IMG/VR virus record: IMGVR_UViG_3300020369_000005 | Coordinates: 1 to 46,522 of that record | DNA from: a virus | Lineage: Duplodnaviria > Caudoviricetes | Length of the DNA: 46,522 nt | Direction: 5' to 3' (one strand) | Shown here: positions 11,662-46,522 of the stretch, piece after piece | Layout of the letters: every line of letters begins with the position of its first letter | Position numbering within the stretch: position 1 is the stretch's first letter | Notes under the pieces: model-generated | Seen by the model: the letters and a program-made list of their open reading frames with translations, nothing else | The model's database searches: none | What the model was told of the DNA's origin: nothing | Made by a program: the position numbers and the translations under genes

Positions 11662-11802
11662 ATGTCACAAGCAAACTATACAGCAATACAAAAAATGCGT
11701 CTAATTGATTTACACACCCTACCAAGCAACCTGTTATTGCAATGGTTAGCCAGTAAGCCCGCATGGCTGCAAGCGGCGGTTATTGGTCGCCAAGCGCATT
11801 AA
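11662..11802 (+). CDS. Small hypothetical protein (46 aa) behind a hairpin leader
   Basis: MSQANYTAIQKMRLIDLHTLPSNLLLQWLASKPAWLQAAVIGRQAH with AGAGG RBS; stem GCCGGTG...CACCGGC upstream. Confidence 0.45.
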   Translation: MSQANYTAIQKMRLIDLHTLPSNLLLQWLASKPAWLQAAVIGRQAH

Positions 11803-11950
11803 CGCTTTTATTTAGTAATTGGGCGATTTGCACAGCCACCGCGTTAACGTGCTGATCGTCCTCACTGGCGCGGGCCAGTATCACACACAGCGAATGGGCG
11901 GCGCTTAAATCATCTACAACGCTCACTGTTTTATTTATTTTATTTTCCAT
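11780..11950 (-). CDS. Small hypothetical protein (56 aa) divergent from the second CI-like gene
   Basis: MENKINKTVSVVDDLSAAHSLCVILARASEDDQHVNAVAVQIAQLLNKSVNALGDQ with AAGG RBS. Confidence 0.5.
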   Translation of the reverse strand: MENKINKTVSVVDDLSAAHSLCVILARASEDDQHVNAVAVQIAQLLNKSVNALGDQ

Positions 11951-12106
11951 AATTTAACCTTAGATAACTGCATTAATTGCAATGAAAATTACACGGATAT
12001 GACACCCTTTGCAATAAAAACTTACATTTTGTCAGTTTTTATTCAGGCAGGGTATGTAATTATTTACAGGATCGGTTACTATAACGCCAACATAAGAGGC
12101 AGGCCC

Positions 12107-12532
12107 ATGTTTAAAAAAGCACTAACACCCGAGCAGCAAACCGTACACGATATAATAAATCGTGTGTGCTGGGCGCATGGTGTAAAAAATAAAGCAGCCC
12201 TTGAGCGCAAAATAGCGTTAAGTGACTCATGGTGTACCAACACAATTAAACGCGGCTCAACACCGTATGCACTAATAGACCAAACAGCGCAGGCAACCGG
12301 CATAAGTTACGATCACCTACTGTATGGCAGCCCAATGAGCCAACTAGACCCAAACGATTTGTTGTATATAAAGCAAGGTTTAATAAAAAGCTTAAGAGAG
12401 CTAAACGAGCAGGGGTTTATAAATAAAGCGAGCAGCTTAGAAGATTTAGAACAGCTTGCAAAAAAACAAGCCGCCGATATTGAGCACGAACTTACAATAC
12501 AGTGGAACAAAAACACAAAAGAGCGCGCCTAG
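12107..12532 (+). CDS. Second CI-like HTH regulator (186/P2-CI-type N-terminal domain)
   Basis: IINRVCWAHGVKNKAALERKIALSDSWCTNTIKRGSTPY...TGISYDHLLYG. GAGG RBS before the ATG at 12107; the track ORF starts at 11999. Confidence 0.7.
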   Translation: MFKKALTPEQQTVHDIINRVCWAHGVKNKAALERKIALSDSWCTNTIKRGSTPYALIDQTAQATGISYDHLLYGSPMSQLDPNDLLYIKQGLIKSLRELNEQGFINKASSLEDLEQLAKKQAADIEHELTIQWNKNTKERA

Positions 12533-12927
12533 CGCTCTTTGTTAAACTTTGCATAAATTACTTTATGCCCTAAATCATTATCATATTTATTCATTAACTG
12601 CCCTATTGATAATTCCTCAACGGGCGCTTGCACCTCAGCCGGTGTAATTTCTGCAAGCTCAAAATCATAACGGCGCATACTTGGAAACTTACCCAATATT
12701 AATGCCACCTCATTTTTAAGCTTTTCAGCCTCATTCATTAATTGCATTGCTTTATTAAAGTCGGGTTCGTGCTTAGCGTTAATGCTTAATTTAATCGCCA
12801 ATTCGGCCTTATCTCTAATTTGTTTTTTAAATACAGAACGGCGCGCAATAAGCCAGGTACTTAATACAAGTAACGCAAATAACACCAGCGCAGTAAAATA
12901 AACAATATTAATCATGTGCCACCCCAC
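12529..12927 (-). CDS. Single-pass membrane protein with helical soluble domain
   Basis: N-terminal TM (IVYFTALVLFALLVLSTWLIA) followed by RR..KK; overlaps the stop of the upstream gene. Confidence 0.7.
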   Translation of the reverse strand: MGWHMINIVYFTALVLFALLVLSTWLIARRSVFKKQIRDKAELAIKLSINAKHEPDFNKAMQLMNEAEKLKNEVALILGKFPSMRRYDFELAEITPAEVQAPVEELSIGQLMNKYDNDLGHKVIYAKFNKER

Positions 12928-13495
12928 TAAATTGCAAACTCATAAAACGCCCAAAACGGGTAAATAATAAACGCGGGAACACCATTAACACCCCAAGCGC
13001 CACACTAATATAAAGCACAATAAAACTATATGCGTAATGCATAACCGCAAATCCCTCTTGAATATCCAACACCACAAACTTAACCCACACCGCAAAGTGA
13101 GCCAACGCCAACACCAGCGTTAAACGCACAACGGTAAAAAATAACGGGCCATACTTATAACTAAACCGCGTGTGTAACTTATAAAGCACATACACACTTA
13201 ATAAATTAAACCCGCACAACGCCAAGTACACGTTTTGAGCTAAATCGCCGCGCTGGGTGTCGGCTAAAAACATAAGCACATGCTCCATTAATAATGTAGT
13301 TAACATGTATTTAGACCCAACCACCGCAATACATAAAAAATCACTTAATAGTTCAGTGTTTTTTAACGCGCGCACAATCGACAACCCAAACGCCAACACG
13401 TAACACACCGAAATAACCACCTGTAACGAAAATACGTTATGGGCCGCCGTAGCAACCAGTAAATCGTTATAAATATTCGTTAATGTATTTAGCAT
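12908..13495 (-). CDS. Polytopic membrane protein (~6 TM), unknown function
   Basis: 195 aa with five to six hydrophobic segments; AAGGAG RBS at 13501-13506. Confidence 0.8.
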   Translation of the reverse strand: MLNTLTNIYNDLLVATAAHNVFSLQVVISVCYVLAFGLSIVRALKNTELLSDFLCIAVVGSKYMLTTLLMEHVLMFLADTQRGDLAQNVYLALCGFNLLSVYVLYKLHTRFSYKYGPLFFTVVRLTLVLALAHFAVWVKFVVLDIQEGFAVMHYAYSFIVLYISVALGVLMVFPRLLFTRFGRFMSLQFSGVAHD

Positions 13496-13536
13496 GTACG
13501 CTCCTTGTTGGCTATTTATAATATAATTTTAGGCAT

Positions 13537-13565
13537 AAAAAAACCAGCAACTTGCTGGCTTTTTA
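13537..13565. terminator. Intrinsic terminator after the peptide gene
   Basis: A7-CCAGCAA-C-TTGCTGG-C-T5. Confidence 0.7.
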
Positions 13566-13582: not shown

Positions 13583-13759
13583 TTACTTTGGCTTTTTAGG
13601 GTTTAAAATAATAATACCGCCCGAACCCTGTAGTTTTGGTTTAGGTTTTTTAGGGTTTAAAATAATAATACCGGCTGAGCCCTGTAATTGCTGTGTATTT
13701 ACATTGGCTGAGGTAACGTCTGCCGCAAGGCCGCTTAATAGTAATAATGTCGCTGTCAT
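13583..13759 (-). CDS. 58-aa precursor-like peptide with duplicated core LQGS[A/G]GIIILNPKKPK
   Basis: AAGGAG RBS before the ATG at 13759; 54-nt-period duplication with 6 of 7 nucleotide differences synonymous; own terminator. Confidence 0.8.
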   Translation of the reverse strand: MTATLLLLSGLAADVTSANVNTQQLQGSAGIIILNPKKPKPKLQGSGGIIILNPKKPK

Positions 13760-13835
13760 TTTTTTGCTCCTTAAAATAAATTCAAACAGCAACAGCAAAT
13801 ACCACGCCAAGTATTTAAAAGGCGTTAAAGCCACT

Positions 13836-13927
13836 CTTTAGGGTTTACCCTAAAGTTAATTAAATTACCCATAGTAATGCGCCTATAGTTAAACTTTAGC
13901 GATACAAAAATAACCCTAAAGTTTAAC
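13836..13927. promoter_or_regulatory. Putative res site for the serine resolvase
   Basis: Palindrome CTTTAGGGT-TT-ACCCTAAAG 13836-13855 and wider-spaced inverted pair GTTAAACTTTAGcG (13888-13901) / CCCTAAAGTTTAAC (13914-13927), immediately upstream of the recombinase. Confidence 0.7.
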
Positions 13928-13936
13928 GGGCCAAAC

Positions 13937-14647
13937 GTGGCAAAAAATTACGCCTACATACGCATAAGCGACGCGCGCAAACAGCACAGCAAAGGGCAAC
14001 GCCATTGCATAAGCCAATACGCCAGTAAACACGGGCTATTTATATACAAATGGTACGAGTACCAATTAAGCGGGGCCAGCACCAACAAAGCCCAGCGCGG
14101 GCTCATTGAGTTAATAGAGCGATTAGCGCCAGGCGATCGGGTGTTAGTAAACGACATAGAACGCTTAGGCCGCGACTCTATCAGCGACATAATGGAAGTG
14201 ACCACCCGCATAATAAACGCAGGGGCCGAAATACACTTTTGCTTAACGGGCGACACCCTCACCCCAAGCCACAAAAACGACGTAGGGCAATTTTTTATAC
14301 AAATTGGCCGCGCCTTTGCCGCACAAGACTTTAGTAAGCAACGCAGTTTAAAAGCCAAAGCGGCAGCCGTTCGCCGCAAAGCCAGCAACTTACCCGCAGG
14401 GCGGGCAAAAGGGGCCATAATAAAAAGCAGGCTTGATGAGCGCGAAAACCAAATATTATTTTGGTTAAGCCAAGACGTATTTAAAAGCGAAATAGCACGG
14501 CGGCTAAACTGCAGCCCCACCGCCTTAATAAAATGGCTTGATCGACGCGACGAACTAATATGCCAAGCCAGCACAAACGGCGTGTACGAAAACGGCTTAA
14601 GCATTGGGGAAATAAAACGGCGGTTAAAGGGGGTTAAAATAGAGTGA
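13937..14647 (+). CDS. Serine recombinase (resolvase/invertase family)
   Basis: YAYIRIS (catalytic Ser), SG, GD.VLV.DIERLGRD, GR, C-terminal HTH KSEIARRLNCS. Confidence 0.92.
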   Translation: MAKNYAYIRISDARKQHSKGQRHCISQYASKHGLFIYKWYEYQLSGASTNKAQRGLIELIERLAPGDRVLVNDIERLGRDSISDIMEVTTRIINAGAEIHFCLTGDTLTPSHKNDVGQFFIQIGRAFAAQDFSKQRSLKAKAAAVRRKASNLPAGRAKGAIIKSRLDERENQILFWLSQDVFKSEIARRLNCSPTALIKWLDRRDELICQASTNGVYENGLSIGEIKRRLKGVKIE

Positions 14648-26917: not shown

Positions 26918-29900
26918 TTATGAGTTAAATAAATTCTCCTGCGTTTTTATGCTTATTTGCTGCTGCTTATTAGATAATGACACTGAGCCTATTGTAATGG
27001 CGTAGTTATACGACGCGCTTGCCGTGTTGGTATCTACAGCGGTGGTGCTAAATGAATAGTAGTCGTGTATGGTGTATTCGCCGCCGTCTTGTGGCTCGTA
27101 AGTTACAACGCGTGTAACAACAACCGACCCTGATTTAATGGTTGTGCCATTGCGCGTTATTGCATAGGGCAAAGTGTACGTGCTTGCGCCTGTAGGCACC
27201 GACGAACTGCTGGTAATTGCTGTTCCCGACCCGTCGGTATTAATAGTTATTTCAACCTCATTACCGGCGCTTTGATGGGTGACACTTGCCTCGGTGGTGC
27301 CTTGTGCATATTTAGATTCGAGCATTTGCCCTGAGAAAAAACTCCCTTTTATAAAGCCAGTGGTATTTTTTTTAATAAAAAATATGGCGTTTGAATCTGT
27401 TTTTTCTCCTGAACCAATCCAAATTAAATAGGTACCATCGTCGAAAAACTCCCCACGTATACCTGTACCATTGTCGGTTATTATTTCACCCCCCACAATT
27501 TTAGGGGCTGTCATGGTTGTTCCCGCACGGATCACGTTAGCATCTAATGTATCTTGAATTAATACACTGCCATGCACTTGCAATGCGTAACTTTCCCAAC
27601 TTGCGCCATTAAAGCGTTTAGTGGTTTGCACCGCCGGATCACTGGTTTTGTAAATAGTAACGCGATCATGTGTTACTGGGGCACTGGGTAAGGCGGCATT
27701 GGCTGTTGAGTCGTACCAAATACCGCTAGCGGTTGCCACTTGCACTGAAACTGAGCCACGCGAACCATCAACCCCATTGTTACCATTAATTCCATCGCGG
27801 CCATCGCGGCCATCGTTACCATCGTTGCCTTTAAATCGCGACCATGTGTAATCGGCTGGCTGGTTTGATTCAGTCGCGGTGGTCTTATTAACCGCAATAC
27901 CAATATAAAGCGTATTTTCGTTGGGTGTTTGGTACATGCCCGACCCGCTTGGGTTATTACTATAAGCAATCCATGTGTAGGTTGTTTGGCCATCGGCTCC
28001 TTTTGCACCAGGTATGCCGTCGGTACCATCTTCGCCTTTAACTTTTGACCACTTATAATCTGTCGGGTTTGTTGACTCCGTTGCGGTCGTTTTATTATAA
28101 GCAAAACCGATATACTCTTTATTGGTGGGGGAGTTGCTAAGCCCTGAACCACTGGCGCTGTCGGCGTACTTTACCCATGTGTAGGTTGTTTGGCCATCGG
28201 CTCCTTTTGCACCTGGTATGCCGTCGGCACCATCTTTACCATCAACACCATCTTTACCATCAACACCATCTAGGGCGCGTATGTCGTCTTCGCTGTTAAC
28301 CTCGTAGTTATCACCTAACACCATGCGGCCTTTAAATGTATGTACGGGATTAGTCGGATCGGTGTTATCAACATATATGGTAGGTACAAACGTATCACCC
28401 ACCATAACACCGTGACGTATTACATCGGCAACAAGGTCTAAATTACCTGTTTCGCCATCGTTATAACCCGCCACGCTCACAGCGCGGCCATTGTTATCGA
28501 GCACCCAACCGCCACGGGCCACTAACTCACCGTTTACCTTTTTAAAGACTTGCTTAAGCTCTTTTATGCTGGCTGTGCTTTCGCCGTCGCTAATTTGTAA
28601 GTTAGAAATGTACTCGGCAAGTGGCCCAGCTACCCACGAACCACCATCAGCGACACACACCACCGCGTCACTTTCGCTGGTTATGTCGCCGTTGGCATCT
28701 ACACAATAACCCACGGCTGTGCGGGTGTATTCTTGAGCCATAGCCACCGCTTGGCTTTGTGCTTGTTCAGTGTCGGTATCAATCTTACTGGTTAAGCTTT
28801 GCTCAAGCGTAGTAAAGGCTTGGTTTTGGCTTGCAAATGTTTCTGTTACTTCATCAAAGCTGGCAATGGTATCAGCCACAAACGATTCAAACTCTTGATC
28901 GCGTACGGTGTTGGCTTCGTCAATCGTGGCTATAGCCGTGGTTACATCACTAAATCGGGCGGTTATGGTGTCAAAGGTTGCAAGATAGCGCTCATCACGG
29001 ATAACAGTAGCTTGTTTTTCGTTGGCCACAATTTGATTTAGCACGGTTATTTGGCCGCGGGCTTGTTCAAAAATCGTGGCTAATTCCAGTGATTGGCTTG
29101 CTTGGGCTTCAAGCTCCGTTGTTTTAGCTTGTAACTCACTTTGGGCAATGGATAGTTTTACACCAGCTTGGGTTAACTCGTTATTTTTTAATAGCTGATT
29201 AACCGAATTTATAATGTCGTTTAAATTAGCGTCTTGCAAGTCAAGCTCTAACCCTTGGACTTGCACGACATTTTGGCTAATGGTGCCGTTTAAAGCGTCG
29301 AGCGTTTGATCAACGTTTGATAATTTGGCATCAATTCCATCCTCAGCGGCGTTAAATGCGGTTATTTGGTTTGTTATGTATGCCTCTGCGCCATTAATAA
29401 ATTGTTGGGCGTTGTTGGCTTTTTCAAGTGTGCCGTTTTCATCAAATGTTTGCAGCGTTGCGCTTACTTGGTAAGTGGTATCAAACGCGTTAATGATGGC
29501 ATTGACGTTTGATTGGGTTTGGTAGCCAAGCTGATTTACCCACGTTGTGGTTGCGTATTGCGCCATGACCCCCGTGGCCGCATTAATGTCGGTTTCAAGC
29601 TCAGTTGTACGGGCTGTAATATCGTTTAGCGCTAGATCGTTAGCGCCGCGCTTTCCTACTTCAATAAAGTCAATATCACAAGCCCCTAAATTTAACTCAA
29701 GCGAGGTAATATTACCTGTGTAACCACTTGTGCCAGTGGCATCGACTTGTAAAGTTTGCCAATCAGTATTGTTGGGGGAGGGAACATTAATTAACGCCTC
29801 GCCGTTATTTGCAATTATTTCACCTATCCATTGCTGGCCGCTGTGTAAGCGCACACGCAACCTAAACATGGGGTTTTCGTCTGCGATGTAGTTAATTGAG

Positions 29901-38498: not shown

Positions 38499-38792
38499 TT
38501 ACTCTTTTTCGTATAGCTCTGCAGGGCTTGGAACAAGCGCCAGTATGGCGGCGGCTTTGTCGTTGCTAAAACTTGCAATGTCGCCATTGGCCCATGCTTT
38601 GTATGGGCCGTTAAATTTAAGCGTTACACTTTCTTGCTCTGGTGCGGCTTTTTCTGCCTCAGCTTGTGCGGCTTTTTCTGCCTCAGCTTGTGCGGCTTTG
38701 TCTGCCTCAGCTTGGGCGGCTTTTTCTGCCTCAGCTTGTGCGGCTTTGTCTGCCTCAGCTTGCGCGGCTTTTTTTTCGGCGGCTGTTGCCAT
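38499..38792 (-). CDS. Small head-associated protein with tandem AQAEA[D/E]KA repeats
   Basis: GGAG RBS before the ATG at 38792; five 24-nt tandem units at about 38642-38762; hairpins on both sides. Confidence 0.75.
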   Translation of the reverse strand: MATAAEKKAAQAEADKAAQAEAEKAAQAEADKAAQAEAEKAAQAEAEKAAPEQESVTLKFNGPYKAWANGDIASFSNDKAAAILALVPSPAELYEKE

Positions 38793-38856
38793 GGTGTTTA
38801 CTCCAAATTTACCCCGCACTTAGGCGGGGTATTTTTGTTTAAGGGCTAAGCGAGGC

Positions 38857-45960: not shown

Positions 45961-46270
45961 AAATGAACACCTCTTTTAGCTTAGTTTGCACAACGGTTTG
46001 TTGTTCTGTTACATCGGCCAAACTAACAAGATGATCATTAAACATTCTTTCTTGGGTCTTAATGTCGGCCATTAACTTAAGTTTATCTGCTTCACTTGAT
46101 TGCAGTTCAACACCCAGCTTGGCGAGCTTATCAGTTAACGCATTATTTTTTTCAGTTAAGCTTTCACTTAATGCAATAGCGCCGTTATATTTATCAACCA
46201 ACACATACCCACCAACTGAAACAGACACAGCAAGGGCCGCAAATAAAGCAGTTTTATTTAGTGATAACAT
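45824..46270 (-). CDS. i-spanin (Rz-like)
   Basis: N-terminal TM, coiled coil, W..TPLPDDV.R.L. Confidence 0.85.
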   Translation of the reverse strand: MLSLNKTALFAALAVSVSVGGYVLVDKYNGAIALSESLTEKNNALTDKLAKLGVELQSSEADKLKLMADIKTQERMFNDHLVSLADVTEQQTVVQTKLKEVFIYDQANKDWGNTPLPDDVKRVLLNATRTKSNNDNKASAGVAAGLPP

Positions 46271-46522
46271 GGCAACCTCGCTTTTATTTGTAATTGATAA
46301 CGCCTAATATGCTGCACATATTCAATGGTTTCTCTTGAAAAGTGACCTGTCACATCGGGTAAGTATTGGATTATATGAGGGTAAAGAACCTCGCCGCCGC
46401 TAAGCTTTTGCGCTTTAAGGCAATTGCCTGCACCGGCGTTGTAATTGCATAGCGCCAAGTTTTCGCGGTCATACTCTGGCCGAGGGCTCGACCAAAAAGA
46501 ATATTGCTGCTGCATATAACGG
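46258..46522 (-). CDS. Lytic transglycosylase endolysin, C-terminal part
   Basis: RYMQQQ...LALCNYNAGAGN...ETIEYV carries the SLT motif III (YNAG) and ET..YV. Frame is open to the window end. Confidence 0.88.
   Translation of the reverse strand, partial: RYMQQQYSFWSSPRPEYDRENLALCNYNAGAGNCLKAQKLSGGEVLYPHIIQYLPDVTGHFSRETIEYVQHIRRYQLQIKARLPCYH

Follow-up and report, generated by a model that had tools for sequence, protein, structure and literature searches.

The gene for a predicted 58-aa peptide at positions 13583–13759 (minus strand) of a phage genome has two copies of one short coding segment. The question that this locus raises is whether the repeat is maintained as DNA or as a peptide and, if as a peptide, what the product does. 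The window, i.e., the stretch of DNA that was analyzed, is a whole record of 46,522 nt (46.5 kb) and represents a temperate phage with plasmid features. Genes for terminase, portal, capsid and tail are present as judged by position and sequence, and a Pfam scan reveals two replication initiators, ParA, a serine resolvase, a tyrosine recombinase and a cleavable CI. Rep3 and IncFII RepA family initiators, ParA with a small partner, the resolvase and the tyrosine recombinase are thus found in one phage (positions 20190–22793, 10684–11587 and 3371–4612). A lysis-region gene is seemingly split over both ends of the window (46258–46515 and 1–232), which suggests a circular record, and a small gene behind the capsid gene (38499–38819, minus strand) has Ala/Glu/Lys-rich tandem repeats. 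Pseudoalteromonas is the likely host, because the named homologs of the gene that neighbors the peptide gene are all from this genus.

The precursor consists of a short hydrophobic leader, a spacer and two 10-residue cores, each followed by a basic stretch. Both copies of the core in the window read G-S-A/G-G-I-I-I-L-N-P. A Shine-Dalgarno sequence, AAGGAG, is at 13767–13772 (minus strand), 7 nt ahead of the ATG; AAGGA is present in 19 of 20 relatives, and the remaining one is cut by a contig end. A start at GTG 13834, which would give 83 aa, was rejected since the relatives begin at the Met behind the Shine-Dalgarno sequence. The initial annotation reported seven nt differences, six of them synonymous, between two 16-codon copies (copy 1 at 13640–13687 and copy 2 at 13586–13633, 54 nt from copy 1, both on the minus strand). 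A recount agrees and gives five third-position changes, one first-position change in a Leu codon and one Ala/Gly replacement. The probability of at least six synonymous changes out of seven is 0.001 at equal rates and 0.007 at a transition bias of 8, values that are optimistic in that the copy boundaries were chosen by eye. The remaining five frames show 0 to 2 synonymous vs 2 to 6 non-synonymous codon changes.

The purifying selection at the protein level that had been proposed from this one pair of copies is settled by the relatives, because the 10-codon cores of 20 distinct precursors display 84 synonymous vs 4 non-synonymous differences between copies. Uncorrected pN/pS values from 21 distinct genes are 0.28 and 0.30 for the cores, 0.44 for the leader and 0.50–0.63 for the spacers; pS is near saturation in these values and differences between alleles are included. 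The repeat is present as first described with a 16-residue core, but the conserved unit is shorter, about 10 residues, and the flanking LQ and KKPK vary. The layout of a multi-core precursor is borne out by homologous loci, where precursors with each core number from one to four are found. The leader has no basic n-region, as was remarked at the outset, so the doubt on Sec export remains; an invariant Asp follows about 12 hydrophobic residues. A check set beforehand was for a frameshift or stop in cassettes that retain the DNA repeat, and none is found in 33 distinct cassettes. The letters AACCCTAAA give way to other Asn-Pro codons in relatives. The gene almost certainly encodes a real peptide under selection.

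The divergent neighbor of the peptide gene is the serine resolvase gene (13937–14647, plus strand), which lies outside the cassette and is missing at P2-like and chromosomal copies. Inverted repeats at 13834–13927 are the likely res site of the resolvase and are found only at resolvase-bearing loci; resolvase-free cassettes are without them and retain the peptide. A 216-codon open frame opposite the resolvase gene (13954–14604, minus strand) is partly open in relatives and is likely a shadow frame. The cassette in the window is located between the partition genes and the resolvase gene.

The cassette has a fixed order: a sigma-54-type motif, the two-core peptide gene, a hairpin, a membrane protein gene, a gene for an anchored protein (gene 3) and a convergent CI-type helix-turn-helix (HTH) gene. 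It is carried by Pseudoalteromonas phages, by prophages and at one chromosomal site. The membrane protein was found at 24 loci, and the two-core gene is present in 22 of the 22 that have upstream DNA, L011 being the window's own sequence. In total, 77 records were obtained, many of which duplicate a place already represented, and 33 distinct pairs remain; loci with a membrane gene that lacks a start or scores above E 1e-40 are not counted. The two-core gene precedes the membrane gene in all 33 distinct close cassettes, with gene 3 present in 32 and the HTH gene in 31, and the gaps are due to cut contigs. Cassettes are located in phage-plasmids like the window, in P2-like prophage pieces (L008 and L009) and at a chromosomal site between the genes for exonuclease I and a bicarbonate transporter. 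L008 and L009 had been considered as satellites, a reading that was rejected since repressor and excisionase match phage ACA1. The close family occurs in 19 of 140 Pseudoalteromonas genomes; a wider profile detects members in 28 of the 140, and in 2 genomes of a 401-genome sample of the order. A duplicate of about 35 codons of the membrane protein's last helix lies between the membrane gene and gene 3 at G002:C21:270078-270176 and at eight other chromosomal loci, and is likely a scar of allele replacement.

The sigma-54-type –24/–12 motif, TGGC-N8-TGCT, is at positions 13794–13809 (minus strand), 50 nt ahead of the ATG, and promoter activity is predicted. All 32 cassettes that extend upstream of the peptide gene have it, at 49–62 nt from the ATG and with varied spacer letters, and these 32 motifs are not independent of one another. 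The whole window has five matches to the motif where 5.6 are expected by chance. The motif was detected at 7 loci out of 36 that are more distant and at 1 of a further 3. The GG and GC elements at –24/–12 with fixed spacing that mark a sigma-54-dependent promoter are found, and the motif has the same form as ChIP-supported sigma-54 sites listed in the part of PMC3844500 that was available. Sigma-54 promoters require an enhancer-binding AAA+ activator (PMC3844500); none is encoded in the cassette and a host activator would be needed. A sigma-70 scan showed fewer sites than chance. In RNA runs, related elements account for only small shares, as contigs that do not extend over the peptide gene. 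Between the peptide and membrane genes is a hairpin with T-runs on both sides (13536–13563; stem at 13544–13558 in the plus strand listing), including a minus-strand T-run. The stem is conserved in 20 of 20 relatives. It is likely a terminator or attenuator that would leave the peptide message in excess.

The membrane protein gene (12908–13495, minus strand) encodes 195 aa with five predicted helices and an N terminus predicted to be outside; the protein is a candidate receptor, and its N-terminal half travels with the core allele. The structure model has five long helices with a pLDDT of 87 and a pTM of 0.81. Loops 1 and 3 and the tail are rich in Lys and Arg, and therefore the N terminus and loop 2 are placed outside; the variable N terminus, loop 2 and loop 4 are all predicted to face outward. 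One His, a Trp-x-Lys pair and two Tyr are near-invariant among 33 homologs, and in the same set there is no fully invariant column or conserved Cys. No peptidase or transporter family was detected for this protein in Pfam (to E 0.1) or NCBIfam. The best fold match is a designed bundle (Z 8.8, rmsd 3.7, 129 residues aligned), and Foldseek matches have E values above 1. Fold searches with two models thus gave no specific solved match, which by itself indicates neither a new fold nor the absence of one. The protein has 20 clusters in 1.84 billion proteins. In the ESM Atlas it matches three unnamed or automatically named clusters with no common Pfam family among them, and tblastn against phage and plasmid collections gave no match.

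The evidence that links this protein to the peptide comes from the alleles. There are nine core types, and both copies within a precursor change together. When mapped on a tree of membrane protein residues 1–95, the core types require 8 changes, which is the minimum, vs 15 on the gene 3 tree (32 cassettes, with L020, which is without gene 3, omitted). Partial correlation with the core given gene 3 is 0.56 for the N-terminal segment, 0.60 for loop 2, 0.28 for loop 4 and 0.05 for the last helix and tail, a region that instead tracks gene 3 (partial r 0.82). The leader of the precursor also tracks gene 3 (0.84, vs –0.11 with the core), with four core types behind one leader. Because leader and tail both track gene 3, the swapped block has its boundaries within the peptide gene on one side and within the membrane gene on the other. 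Pairs of cassettes whose gene 3 is at least 85% identical illustrate this: the 61 pairs with different core types have 48% identity in the N-terminal segment and 89% in the tail, and the 18 pairs with the same core type have 97% and 95%. Permutation P values for the allele comparison disregard relatedness and carry no weight here.

The swapped block was never seen broken across the spacer of roughly 90 nt with its conserved hairpin. Residue 17 of the membrane protein is Asp or Glu in 13 of 13 cassettes where core position 9 is Lys or Arg and in 0 of 19 otherwise, a charge match that rests on one or two tree branches and may represent one or two events. Linkage alone makes neighbors co-vary; the block boundaries argue for more than linkage, but fall short of proving contact. 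The core and the membrane protein are very probably a cognate pair, as far as alleles can tell. Allele matching alone does not separate a receptor from an immunity protein or a maturase.

Gene 3 (12529–12915, minus strand) encodes a candidate transducer of 128 aa, in which basic residues come after a single hydrophobic helix at the N terminus and the domain that follows is predicted to be cytoplasmic; the ESM Atlas has no usable match for it. The 141-aa CI-type HTH protein (12107–12532, plus strand), a candidate output repressor, has an extra C-terminal domain and is encoded convergently with the operon. Its start at 12107 is taken from the alignment, and a longer open frame begins at 11999. 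It matches Pfam Phage_CI_repr at the cut-off as well as PHROG repressors, and in the 140 genomes 17 of 17 of its matches are within about 1 kb of the membrane gene. Since the window has a separate cleavable CI, the HTH protein is not evidently the lysogeny switch here. A 56-aa gene (11780–11950, minus strand) is divergent from the HTH gene and is a candidate regulated target; homologs are present at the same place in L001, L002, L005 and L007, and no Pfam, PHROG or PADLOC match was found. It is overlapped by a convergent 46-aa gene (11662–11802, plus strand; PHROG 22022) that is retained in related phages. Between the HTH gene and the 56-aa gene is a palindrome (12017–12039), a candidate operator that is a single site in the window. 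The palindrome is retained in mobile copies and is missing at the chromosomal site along with the 56-aa gene. At that site (L031, L033, L035, L047 and L049) the helix-turn-helix region has also diverged, and this domesticated copy may differ in output.

No family match beyond noise came from Pfam, PHROGs, NCBIfam or PADLOC for the peptide, the membrane protein or gene 3, and the weak rows PatX (E 0.08), PspB (0.34) and Tad (0.02) were set aside. More distant homologs were found at further loci. Single cores are present in L054, L055, L056 and L059 and four cores in L053, and two of these distant loci have seemingly ordinary signal peptides. A second membrane type, located beside the first in L008 and L009, occurs in 50 of 140 genomes, the highest copy number being 17. 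It is a remote homolog through intermediates: profile comparisons give 97.7% and 89% stepwise and 46% directly, and a single-sequence profile comparison of the first and second types gave no link. Second-type precursors have one to five Gly-rich cores, many of them behind double-glycine-like leaders, where the leader classes (Sec-like, double-glycine-like and flagellar-type) were judged by eye. One GenBank note gives a weak bacteriocin-leader match for a remote precursor. Three loci (L069 at 1984–2322, L093 and L116) have multi-core precursors with long polar leaders, which we take to recall flagellar export substrates; L069 is from another genus and also has a sigma-54-type motif. In L091, L094 and L095 a double-glycine-like or other remote leader is joined to a core close to that of the window family. 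The presence of different leaders ahead of like cores suggests that delivery outside the cytoplasm is the conserved feature.

At many second-type loci a third gene for an anchored protein and a convergent HTH gene are again found, and others consist of the peptide and membrane genes only. Arrays on host chromosomes (L131–L134) contain four to six second-type membrane paralogs, at most one peptide gene and no gene 3; two of these arrays end at a gene pair for a kinase and a heme-NO-binding-like protein, the latter identified by eye. Intermediate membrane homologs are present in L087 and L088, where the filter detected no peptide gene in front. In the cultured phage ACA1 a second-type cassette is represented by gp5–gp7 and converges on gp9, an annotated immunity repressor with an unusual C-terminal domain. 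The accessible main text of PMC10612066 mentions neither gp5, gp6, bacteriocin nor quorum. L008 (1304–5660) and L009 (1660–5921) each have two back-to-back cassettes, in which the HTH gene and palindrome of the first type face the peptide gene of the second; what is presumably a LexA-box-like sequence lies between the two, and there may be control of one cassette by its neighbor. Small unnamed phage proteins with weak fold matches to the membrane protein pointed to phage PEi21. In that phage, genes for a 41-aa peptide with three repeats, a 143-aa membrane protein and a holin-like protein are divergent from an endolysin gene (L128 at 27644–28484; L130 at 1381–2219). The PEi21 membrane gene is matched by 77 phage records. 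Profile comparison shows no sequence homology between its 143-aa product and the window membrane protein, and the weak fold likeness is a lead only.

The best reading of these data, favored with modest confidence, is that of an exported peptide signal perceived by a membrane receptor and passed through an anchored transducer to a repressor. A host sigma-54 activator would turn on the operon, and the hairpin would leave the peptide message in excess. The precursor would be exported and cut at its basic stretches into two cores, each trimmed to about 10–13 residues, and a core would bind the predicted outer face of the membrane protein of its own allele. The inner tail of that protein would then act on the anchored gene 3 protein, which would hold or release the HTH protein, and the latter may act as a repressor at the palindrome at 12017–12039 that faces the 56-aa gene, the candidate output. 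The relay to the HTH protein is reasonably probable, and that the signal acts between cells has about an even chance. The cassette is likely used for counting cells with an element of the same allele; control of lysis-lysogeny or of the plasmid state as the output in the window phage is a tentative proposal. The signal reading is consistent with remote membrane homologs that follow Gly-rich cores with Sec-like, double-glycine-like and other leaders, and with the remote ACA1 cassette that converges on an annotated immunity repressor. Evidence against it comes from the leader, which has an invariant Asp and no basic n-region, from the orphan arrays of four to six remote paralogs, an arrangement shared with immunity arrays, from several remote loci that consist of a peptide gene and a membrane gene only, from the separate cleavable CI of this phage and from the missing palindrome and 56-aa gene at the chromosomal site.

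The doubtful export route of the leader also bears on a different explanation, in which the peptide stays in the periplasm or membrane of the cell that makes it and keeps the membrane protein either active or inactive. It would then serve for feedback modulation, as an antitoxin or as part of a block to superinfection, and no signal would pass between cells. Excess production of an inhibitor would be consistent with the hairpin behind the first gene, and a sigma-54 promoter could link the cassette to the stress state of the host. However, nine alleles at one chromosomal site and across phages are easier to explain as discrimination between elements, membrane paralogs persist without peptide genes, which argues against a toxin that needs its antitoxin, and PADLOC gave no match. 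This explanation is unlikely.

The orphan paralog arrays, with up to 17 copies per genome, resemble immunity stockpiles and are a feature in common with class II bacteriocins and microcins. On this account the cell would secrete the peptide as a short toxin, the membrane protein would confer immunity to the toxin of its own allele, and gene 3 and the HTH protein would have regulatory roles. An allele-matched small peptide and membrane protein are expected for such pairs, and double-glycine-like leaders are found in the remote subfamily. Class II bacteriocins and microcins are much longer than ten residues, however, and the cores here are about 10 residues and repeated, far below that size. The window precursor has no double-glycine leader, no exporter is found in the cassette or among neighboring genes, and no modifying enzyme is found in the cassette. 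The third gene and regulator are a fixed part of the cassette, and the membrane tail tracks gene 3, which would be needless for an immunity protein. A toxin with its immunity is quite unlikely.

Adjacent, co-varying precursor and membrane genes are also expected if the membrane protein is a dedicated processing or export enzyme of the peptide, as AgrB is for AgrD, and the mature product acts on a receptor elsewhere. The near-invariant His, Trp-x-Lys pair and two Tyr could be read in this way. The catalytic residues of AgrB are a conserved Cys and His; the 33 homologs have no conserved Cys and no invariant column, and Pfam and NCBIfam gave no match to the AgrB family or to any peptidase or transporter. 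Peptide maturases usually read the leader, but here the leader varies independently of the variable half of the membrane protein, and unrelated leaders precede its homologs. A maturase is very unlikely. Finally, an interpretation of the repeat as DNA that belongs with the resolvase site, its reading frame being incidental, has negligible probability: the upstream inverted repeats contain two further occurrences of a 9-mer found in both copies, but the 84 vs 4 changes, the other codons in relatives and the intact gene with its Shine-Dalgarno sequence at resolvase-free loci are against it.

The reading of a signal with its receptor can be compared with known systems. In the agr layout, with its specificity groups, the peptide and the outer part of the sensor vary together. 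The cassette is like agr and ComQXPA of Bacillota in that a small precursor is located beside a membrane protein and the peptide and the outer part of that protein are exchanged as a block while the flanks stay; the pattern of specificity alleles over a peptide and the outer domain of its sensor is found here as a sequence pattern. The accessible parts of PMC6834553 and PMC10075063 mention, respectively, the agr hypervariable region and specificity groups and the components ComX-ComQ-ComP-ComA. The differences are a Gram-negative host and the absence of a histidine kinase, a receiver domain and a known maturase; no kinase or receiver family was detected in any cassette protein by Pfam, PHROG or NCBIfam. 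The cassette also differs in its five-helix protein of no known family, anchored third protein, CI-type HTH protein, two cores and sigma-54-type promoter.

Arbitrium (AimR-AimP-AimX) and other RRNPP systems resemble the cassette in that a phage carries the peptide gene next to that of a candidate receptor, allelic variants exist, and a small gene under a regulator close by is a candidate effector. As set out in the available part of PMC10075063, RRNPP systems have a TPR receptor of 250–500 aa, an adjacent propeptide, and secretion and re-import of the peptide. Those receptors are cytoplasmic TPR proteins that bind an imported peptide, whereas the present candidate is a 195-aa membrane bundle with a separate DNA-binding protein, and no TPR family was detected for the membrane protein, gene 3 or the HTH protein. 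A short propeptide directly adjacent to the receptor is found in 33 of 33 cassettes, if the membrane protein is the receptor. Multi-core RiPP precursors are similar in that repeated cores are split by recognition sequences, with one to four cores at homologous loci, but no modifying enzyme is encoded by the cassette or flanking genes; a host enzyme in trans is possible. The gene order is shared with the Pseudoalteromonas phages ACA1, ACA2 and C5a, where the unannotated gp5–gp7 together with gp9 give the same series of peptide, remote membrane homolog, anchored protein and convergent HTH protein. They differ in having a single Gly-rich core and an HTH_3-type repressor, annotated as immunity repressor. 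No description of the cassette was found in the literature that was searched, in which subscription journals are largely outside the coverage.

The pair of core and membrane protein is likely an undescribed peptide signal and receptor of Gram-negative bacteria that would report to a neighboring repressor. The available part of PMC10075063 presents quorum sensing by peptides as a typical trait of Bacillota, with Pseudomonadota relying on small molecules that enzymes make, and the arbitrium of Bacillus phages is named as a phage-made peptide signal in the accessible part of PMC11794697. The term 'Gram-negative' is absent from the portion of PMC13389391 that was available. It is conceivable, if doubtful, that the cassette is the visible member of a widespread undescribed superfamily of peptide communication in Gram-negative bacteria and their phages, with a Gly-rich core, a five-helix receptor, an anchored relay and a repressor. 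The cores are short enough for synthesis, the nine natural alleles provide built-in specificity controls, and cultured carriers exist, among them the strains from which L029, L031/L037 and L035 derive. Orthogonal peptide-receptor pairs that work in Gram-negative cells would be useful tools. If the signal reading is true, phage communication would be extended to Gram-negative hosts, in this case through phages of marine Gammaproteobacteria, by means of unrelated parts.
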